Origin: Candidatus Aenigmatarchaeota archaeon
Lineage (GTDB): Archaea; Aenigmatarchaeota; Aenigmatarchaeia; JACPZZ01
Direction: 5' to 3'
Assembly: GCA_043801595.1 (NCBI GenBank)
Contig: JAZDLW010000003.1
Span: forward strand, 1 to 13,494
Length of the DNA stretch: 13,494 nt
The position numbers were made by a program, and so were the translations under genes. Numbering within the stretch: the first letter of the stretch is position 1; every line of letters begins with the position of its first letter. The notes beneath the pieces were generated by a model, which was not told the origin of the DNA, made no database searches, and saw only the letters and a program-made list of their open reading frames with translations. Positions 1,300-1,527 of the stretch are shown one piece after another.

Positions 1300-1527
1300 G
1301 CGGGCGGGTCGGCTGTCGAAACAGGTTATACCTGTTTCAACTCGACTGTCCGCTTCCCTCTCACCAGCGAATGTGGGGGTGTCCGGCTATTTCTAAGCCA
1401 GCCAGTAATGGACATCGTAGCAGTTGGAGTAGATCAAAACGTGTCATTGACACGCTTTAGATAGCAGTCGGGGGTGGTGCGAGTTCGTATAAAAGGAGGT
1501 CCGTTAACGCGTTGTTGGCGGATCTCC
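1300..1527 (+). ncRNA. Candidate structured non-coding RNA of unrecognised family
   Basis: Hand-folded stems: 1300-1353 (inner gaaacaggt/acctgtttc), 1358-1379, 1380-1414 (enclosing ggct/agcc), 1440-1454, and 1495-1527 (14 bp, 3 G-U). Most non-Watson-Crick pairs are G-U on the + strand. GC-rich against AT-rich flanks and downstream of a TATA box. Confidence 0.5.

Follow-up and report, generated by a model that had tools for sequence, protein, structure and literature searches.

A conserved structured element behind its own promoter in an archaeal genus, likely a novel regulatory RNA linked to sugar-phosphate metabolism

The window analysed here (13,494 nt) is the start of contig C2 of a Candidatus Aenigmatarchaeota archaeon genome (G000; 0.81 Mb, 86% complete). 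It carries, between a low-GC GmrSD_N (DUF262) gene on one side and convergent HD, EamA, HAD and topA genes on the other, an intergenic stretch that was proposed, from its letters, to encode an undescribed structured RNA. Is this stretch really an RNA, and does it belong to the defence island that it adjoins? As set out below, the likely answer is a novel regulatory RNA linked to sugar-phosphate metabolism, separate from the defence island. The features of the locus are as follows.

116-1135, + strand: GmrSD_N (DUF262) gene (Pfam PF03235, E 1.4e-15), apparent cargo of the last-inserted module, outside the RNA unit
1149-1216, no strand assigned: 13-nt direct repeat in three copies (spacing 20 and 18), with a C tract; likely right end of a module, at an insertion hot spot
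1220-1227, + strand: TATA box, invariant in 6/6 genomes
1226-1265, + strand: 10-nt direct repeat in four copies (KATANNGTNN) straddling the inferred start; an RHH-nucleotidyltransferase repressor is predicted to use it as operator
1264-1464, + strand: open frame of 66 codons; every homologue keeps it open, over 66-135 codons, with no conservation of the peptide
1282-1292, + strand: 5' motif with invariant CAATTG, in frame with the ATG in 6/6
1300-1353, + strand: helix P2, found here in all six folds; its distal part, 1318-1338, is a dispersed palindrome
1351-1357, + strand: pyrimidine heptamer over the 3' end of P2, alternative partner (helix Pc) of 1470-1476
1360-1377, + strand: hairpin P3, RCCAGC in or beside the loop, 30/30 anchored pairs standard
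1379-1416, + strand: helix P4, holding the invariant TTCTA-N(1-2)-GCCAGCCA at 1391-1404
1440-1454, + strand: variable hairpin P5, different or absent in homologues
1470-1494, + strand: Shine-Dalgarno-like heptamer and linker; a start and a stop codon lie 6 nt on in 5/6 sequences, not in the window
1495-1527, + strand: terminal hairpin P6, place kept, sequence variable

Folding, homologues and identity of the element

All five proposed stem-loops fold where they had been placed, with 23, 7, 9, 6 and 14 pairs and a one-sided bulge of 10 nt in the third, and the G-U pairs on the + strand (3+2+0+0+3) come to eight, the approximate number given before. The expected folding signal is also there: the full stretch reaches -92.9 kcal/mol on the + strand (z -4.11; 1 of 200 shuffles equally good), and 0 of 250 GC-matched 228-nt windows, sampled from the 540 that exist in the same genome, fold equally well, the best of these controls overlapping the RNase P RNA. 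As the minus strand scores z -3.94, close to the + strand, z by itself is not informative about strand. Part of the folding signal is borrowed as well, since a palindrome that is dispersed across the genome has one of its copies in the core of hairpin 1 (1318-1338). Several hairpins of the element are copies of this genome-wide palindrome family, which is also found in the tRNA flanks, rRNA leaders and 5S rRNA of relatives. These REP/MITE-like palindromes of the genus are the source of the distal part of hairpin 1 and of other variable arms; they are passengers, and the conserved core of the element lies outside them.

Homologues that BLAST had missed were located through HD orthologues, synteny and the promoter or other short patterns. 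One copy each is present in G001, G002, G003, G005 and G006, beside the EamA-HAD-topA block, so that the element is single-copy and at the same chromosomal site in all six genus genomes in which the neighbours are assembled. Genome G004 gave no match to the element and also no orthologous EamA or CBS gene, so its absence there says little; G007, from a sister genus, likewise gave no orthologous EamA or CBS neighbour. The homologues share a common order of CAATTG, P2, pyrimidine heptamer, P3, P4 with TTCTA-N-GCCAGCCA, variable hairpin, G-rich heptamer, linker and terminal hairpin, and the P4 motif occurs once per genome in all six. The + strand folds with z from -2.9 to -8.8 in the six sequences, each of which has its G-U pairs more commonly on that strand. 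The strands of P4 vary among genomes but still pair, and the changes in P3 and Pc (an A-U/G-C double change in P3, and U-A/U-G changes) favour the + strand. Two of the six sequences are near-identical in the RNA, leaving about three lineages; conservation of the structure across homologues has good support, whereas covariation in the formal sense is not established by these six.

The element changes far less than the neighbouring genes: between G002 and G006, 72 of 80 codons are identical in the RNA frame, compared with 142 of 288 in EamA. With homologues in six genomes, pair-preserving changes and no Rfam family, the proposal of an unnamed, conserved + strand element with its own promoter holds, and from these patterns we consider it quite probable that a structured RNA is indeed transcribed here.

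Which RNA might it be? Rfam 15 gave no match at E<=5 in the window and only sub-threshold miRNA-type matches in the homologues, ARAGORN found no tRNA or tmRNA gene, and RF00005 had no match on the contig, in agreement with the earlier impression that no known family is represented. The suggestion of a very divergent housekeeping RNA fails for RNase P, SRP and 5S RNA, all three of which were found elsewhere in the genome (63.6 bits for RNase P RNA, below the cut-off of 84, with the catalytic motifs aligned; 136.4 bits for SRP RNA; 63.7 bits for 5S rRNA). An rRNA fragment, considered from a likeness to 16S/23S helices, was rejected with a best BLAST E of 0.12 (G003 16S, G000 23S), and a Y RNA with no TROVE (Ro60) match in this 86% complete genome. 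By eye, no C/D or H/ACA box lies among the invariant columns, and the sole notable complement in rRNA is one of 7 nt at the 5' end of 5S rRNA. A duplex scan for mRNA targets in one genome covered 1108 candidate starts, and no target stood out clearly from the shuffled queries.

The known range of the RNA is one genus so far. Used as a BLAST query on the order and on 301 class genomes, the window RNA returned no significant homologue, and the promoter pattern had no exact match in metagenome or viral contigs; of its one-mismatch matches in the class outside the genus, 30 loci and G296 were examined, and none continues into the motif. The core motif has 19 matches outside the genus (371 genomes), none with flanking motifs and 17 within stop-free frames of at least 139 codons. 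Models R1 (one sequence) and R2 (two) missed most of the known homologues, so their negatives are weak; profile R3 (six sequences) recovered all six training loci, and in 151 of the 371 class genomes it gave, under strict filters, four weak matches outside the genus, in frames of at least 183 codons. The sensitivity of these range searches is limited, as BLAST with the relatives' sequences misses even the window. An EamA search of metagenome contigs yielded one distant locus. The element had no phage match and the module ends described below no viral match, while three viral matches to the 10-nt array all lie inside an ORF. One DNA sequencing run gave a 151-nt contig covering only 1188-1295. 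Searches of the open-access literature returned no paper on this RNA, the array motif or the regulator.

Housekeeping in a broader sense is the alternative that survives best. The RNA would then be a constitutive, protein-bound and stable molecule, with the open frame and the two-state fold described below as by-products and the promoter array merely tuning its level. In favour, the element has taken up the palindrome insertions that are also seen at the 5S, 16S leader and tRNA loci, it is single-copy at a fixed site, and in all six genomes its invariant GCCAGCC is perfectly complementary to the 5' end of 5S rRNA. That match is 7 nt long and was noticed post hoc, and covariation cannot test it because both sides are invariant. 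Against such a role, no counterpart was found outside the genus (151 genomes by profile, 371 by motif), and the ATG frame is depleted of stops. We consider it unlikely.

An open frame and two overlapping helices

The ATG of the 5' frame lies at position 41 from the TATA box in five of the six sequences and at 45 in the sixth, always in the frame of CAATTG. From CAATTG to the end of P4 the six sequences hold 1 stop in the ATG frame compared with 14 and 17 in the other two (shuffle probabilities 0.001-0.08 per genome, mutually non-independent), so that translation of the frame is likely on sequence grounds. The inner motifs sit in differing frames among genomes. Conservation of the 66-aa ORF had been named as the case that would speak against an RNA; the peptide proved to be unconserved, and the frame has no Pfam or PHROG match.

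A messenger for a small protein of a sugar regulon, in which only about the first ten residues are important and the structure serves to stabilise the mRNA, would account for the M-S-Y...Q-L shared by five homologues with one synonymous Ser change, and for an ATG that is near-fixed in place, in the CAATTG frame, and followed by 66-135 open codons. The pattern of substitution argues against it: non-synonymous changes equal or exceed synonymous ones (single changes between G002 and G006 are 1 synonymous to 6 non-synonymous in the RNA, compared with 93 to 19 in EamA), and the other two genome pairs compared are likewise without third-position bias in the RNA frame. Together with the shifting of frames among genomes, the empty domain searches and a window peptide that does not begin M-S-Y, this makes a small-protein messenger distinctly unlikely.

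Further downstream, the G-rich heptamer ranks first or second in every RNA as a match to the 16S tail, and the 6-nt spacing to the start codon that follows it coincides with the peak of the genome (32/63 at 5-7 nt). The start-stop pairs in five of the six sequences (ATG TAA three times, ATG TGA, and GTG TGA) vary by A/G transitions throughout; the window has no such pair, which weakens the case for a Shine-Dalgarno-like site with start-stop.

The same heptamer can pair with the pyrimidine heptamer to form helix Pc. With hand-set anchors, 42 of 42 anchored Pc pairs are standard in the six sequences, and on a MAFFT alignment, which displaces the window's strand by two columns, 92.9% of the Pc cells are paired, compared with 55-71% when Pc is slid. 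Of the homologues and covariation that the earlier note suggested looking for, the homologues with their pair-preserving changes were found, but covariation in Pc is not above shuffles (83 of 500 as high). Since Pc overlaps the end of P2 and has a pairing probability of merely 0-0.2 in full-length ensembles, where it is outcompeted, it is either an alternative fold or never formed. A closing helix from 5' to 3' through CAATTG was also tried and, by eye, fails in G003 and is weak in G000.

Promoter, 10-nt array and candidate regulator

The TATA box and the repeats upstream of it that had been reported are both present, at 1220-1227 and 1149-1199. From the peak of the TATA-to-ATG distance at 29-31 nt and from the 5S promoter, transcription would start at about 1249-1251, and the RNA unit is probably longer than 1300-1527, beginning near 1250. 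Over the 49 nt from the TATA box, 43-49 positions are identical among the five relatives and 36-38 between these and the window; for comparison, EamA DNA identity is 63-79%.

Only three three-unit arrays were found in G000 (0-1 in each of five shuffles), at this promoter, at the regulator's own promoter and at a fusion gene for phosphomannose isomerase and phosphomutase (PMI-PGM), which comes after an AMP phosphorylase gene. In all six genomes with the RNA, the best array of the genome is the one at this promoter. The regulator is a fusion of an N-terminal RHH_1 domain to an NTP_transferase domain and occurs in 63 of 201 class genomes; the NTP_transferase domain is present in both the G218 and the G000 protein, and RHH_1 scores 22.5 bits in the former (cut-off 20.5) and 19.2 bits, just under, in the latter. 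Of 29 class-wide regulator orthologues among the matches listed (30 of 65 matches, minus one without upstream sequence), 7 have a two-unit array within the 80 nt before the gene, with a shuffled mean of 0.115 and a maximum of 2 in 200 runs; the remaining 22 have none. Within the genus, such an array precedes 4 of 6 regulator orthologues, and in another family it precedes HAD and PfkB genes that adjoin the regulator. At that stringency, the seven other genomes of the order showed no array before PMI-PGM. In the sister genus (G007), an operator-like array lies at the syntenic place, after the GTPase gene that is also upstream of the element in relatives (L242 3532-3609), without visible 13-nt repeats; sequence loosely like the RNA's 5' motif comes next, and the contig ends 50 nt later. 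These patterns make it reasonably probable that the RNA is controlled by the RHH-nucleotidyltransferase regulator, whose ligand, judged from its domain only, would be a sugar-phosphate or nucleotide-sugar.

Loci with the regulator fusion and arrays, some of them including sugar-phosphate genes, are L181 558-1377, L182 2212-2313, L051 1002-2621 and L183-L212. The PMI in L182 (2-2212, minus strand), which is fused to phosphoglucomutase/phosphomannomutase (more than 737 aa in all), is preceded by two genes, one RuBisCO-like and the other AMP phosphorylase-like.

The reading that we prefer may be set out as follows. A genus-wide RNA of 250-470 nt would be made from a promoter repressed by the RHH-nucleotidyltransferase regulator, repression being suggested because the operator spans the start site; the regulator would sit on the array and let go, or tighten, upon a change in its ligand, so that the RNA is switched by sugar-phosphate or nucleotide-sugar status. 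A ribosome would begin at the 5' ATG and traverse P2 to P4. It is the passage that would count and not the peptide; the open frame and the overlapping helices together suggest that ribosome passage resets the fold. Melting of P2 would let Pc form, hiding the Shine-Dalgarno-like site and altering the exposure of the GCCAGCCA motif. The RNA would finally act in trans, likeliest on the translation machinery or an RNA-binding protein and not by mRNA pairing, although this output step is a guess. As a whole, this model of a regulated, translated, two-state RNA in a sugar-phosphate/nucleotide-sugar regulon is tentative, and we hold it at somewhat under an even chance. A narrower version, in which ribosomes read the RNA merely to refold it and the start-stop site parks or tests ribosomes after repressor release, seems rather improbable; if true, it would couple host sugar supply to translation capacity in a minimal-genome symbiont.

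Regulation in this group of tiny symbiotic archaea is usually regarded as sparse, and a structured RNA behind the strongest operator array of a 0.8-Mb symbiont suggests an RNA layer in sugar control. The locus further allows an operator and a regulon to be predicted for the widespread RHH-nucleotidyltransferase fusion, and it offers an RNA whose reading frame is kept open while its peptide is unconserved. The operator-like array, the frame that remains open in every homologue and the Shine-Dalgarno/start-stop feature are all additions to the earlier note.

Several known systems invite comparison. GlmY and GlmZ are structured bacterial non-coding sRNAs tied to the supply of nucleotide-sugar precursors; neither matches the element in Rfam searches. 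Translational attenuators and T-box-type leaders also have two overlapping helices, one of which hides a Shine-Dalgarno-like site, and an upstream open frame. Unlike them, the element has no downstream gene on the same strand, its site being followed by a start-stop or by nothing, and the T-box motif UGGNACC is not kept. SgrS/SgrT of enteric bacteria is an RNA of about 230 nt with a 5' open frame and a conserved 3' RNA part, under a dedicated sugar-phosphate-sensing transcription factor, and its ORF is unevenly conserved among homologues (PMC12612679). The element resembles SgrS in size, in its 5' open frame and in its candidate metabolite-sensing promoter control, which is a likeness of role and not family membership: there is no sequence or Rfam match, the RHH-nucleotidyltransferase probably represses whereas SgrR activates, and the element has multiple helices, an unconserved peptide and no mRNA target found. 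The same paper describes sRNA154 of Methanosarcina mazei, a nutrient-regulated archaeal RNA with a translated short ORF near its 5' end (PMC12612679), which differs in belonging to a nitrogen regulon, in its conserved 20-aa ORF and in its known mRNA targets, the element again having no Rfam match.

Neighbouring genes and inserted modules

The EamA-HAD-topA genes are oriented toward the element in all six genomes, with an HD gene intervening in three. This arrangement would suit a cis-antisense attenuator, in which the promoter and the folding leader govern read-through into the convergent EamA, HD or HAD genes, and HAD enzymes are among the neighbours of the array in other families. Synteny within one genus is expected by descent, though, the adjacent gene varies (HD or EamA), and no U-rich terminator/antiterminator pair was identified; we regard attenuation in cis as improbable.

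On the other side of the element, the DUF262 gene has a GC content of about 30%, compared with about 45% for the genome. Contig C21 probably joins C2 here, because it holds the GTPase and dehydrogenase genes found upstream of the element in relatives. The 13-nt repeats and C tract, with inverted partners, recur near the end of C21 of G000, at ~99,030, ~100,030-100,135 and 103,107-103,235, and once in an island of G005, in every case separating blocks of defence-type or IS genes; at the element itself, three clear repeats are present in four of the six homologues and degenerate ones in G001 and G003. The repeats look like the ends of modules inserted one after another upstream of the promoter. 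The suggestion that the locus is an integration target therefore stands as far as the repeats mark such modules; in the sister genus, the operator-like array lacks visible repeats. A replication origin at the repeats was considered and rejected: cdc6 is on another contig, the flanking genes converge, and the repeats recur between modules.

The link to the DUF262 island that the earlier note proposed was not supported. At this locus the gene adjoins the element in one of six genomes, while the chromosomal position of the element is fixed, and the RNA is kept without any island in four of the six. The best reading is that the defence island is a passenger using a site just upstream of the promoter. 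A mobile or defence RNA, either a DUF262 antitoxin or a guide for the module-inserting enzyme, could still be argued from the module ends, which border the promoter in every one of the six genomes and do so clearly in four. Besides the adjacency counts, this has against it that no tyrosine recombinase (PF00589) scores over the cut-off in G000, where the island has an assembly gap, that a reverse transcriptase (RVT_1) is found in two of eight genomes, with none in G000 and the G005 copy about 80 kb off, that the sister-genus array lies without repeats, and that, by eye, there is no conserved match between loops of the RNA and module ends; we hold it to be very improbable. A retron or DRT ncRNA was rejected, there being no adjacent reverse transcriptase gene. 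Equally improbable is an element that is functionless as RNA, consisting of a degenerate gene or a spacer in which mobile palindromes have accumulated behind a conserved promoter: several hairpins are genome-wide palindrome copies and the window's identity to its relatives is too low for BLAST, but outside the palindromes there are invariant motifs in a set order and at fixed spacings, together with pair-preserving changes, and the region is far better conserved than the adjoining synonymous sites.

The site just upstream of the promoter is a likely insertion hot spot for defence modules, with defined ends. Tandem defence-type cargo modules, flanked by inverted ends with multiple sites and by C or G tracts, lie at ~99,030-107,093 of C21 in G000 (L010 2030-10094) and at L049 1250-10212 in G005; the former carry DUF3800, proteasome-like, PD-(D/E)XK and HsdM genes, and the latter MazG and a Schlafen-group-3 helicase. 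No recombinase was found in them, and they are possibly an undescribed site-specific mobile element. The 395-aa protein of the G005 island (L049 8455-9642, minus strand) is not recognisable as a recombinase; it has no Pfam, NCBIfam or PHROG match, and atlas leads below 0.9 point to TIM-barrel-like archaeal clusters.

Insertions are also seen in the stable RNA genes of these genomes. The 5S rRNA genes of G002, G006, G001 and G005 (L156, L157, L158 and L159) are interrupted at a common position by a palindromic insertion of ~40 nt, which is absent in G000 and G003, and a tRNA-Leu-like gene of G005 (L173; C5 40,141-40,219) has the mobile palindrome inserted in its D-arm region and another insertion. 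The 16S rRNA gene of G003 (L086 760-4250) is about 3.4 kb long, with many short insertions and two long ORF-bearing ones, and within the 23S gene of G000 a 170-aa ORF (L011 1921-2433, minus strand) is, by eye, LAGLIDADG homing endonuclease-like.
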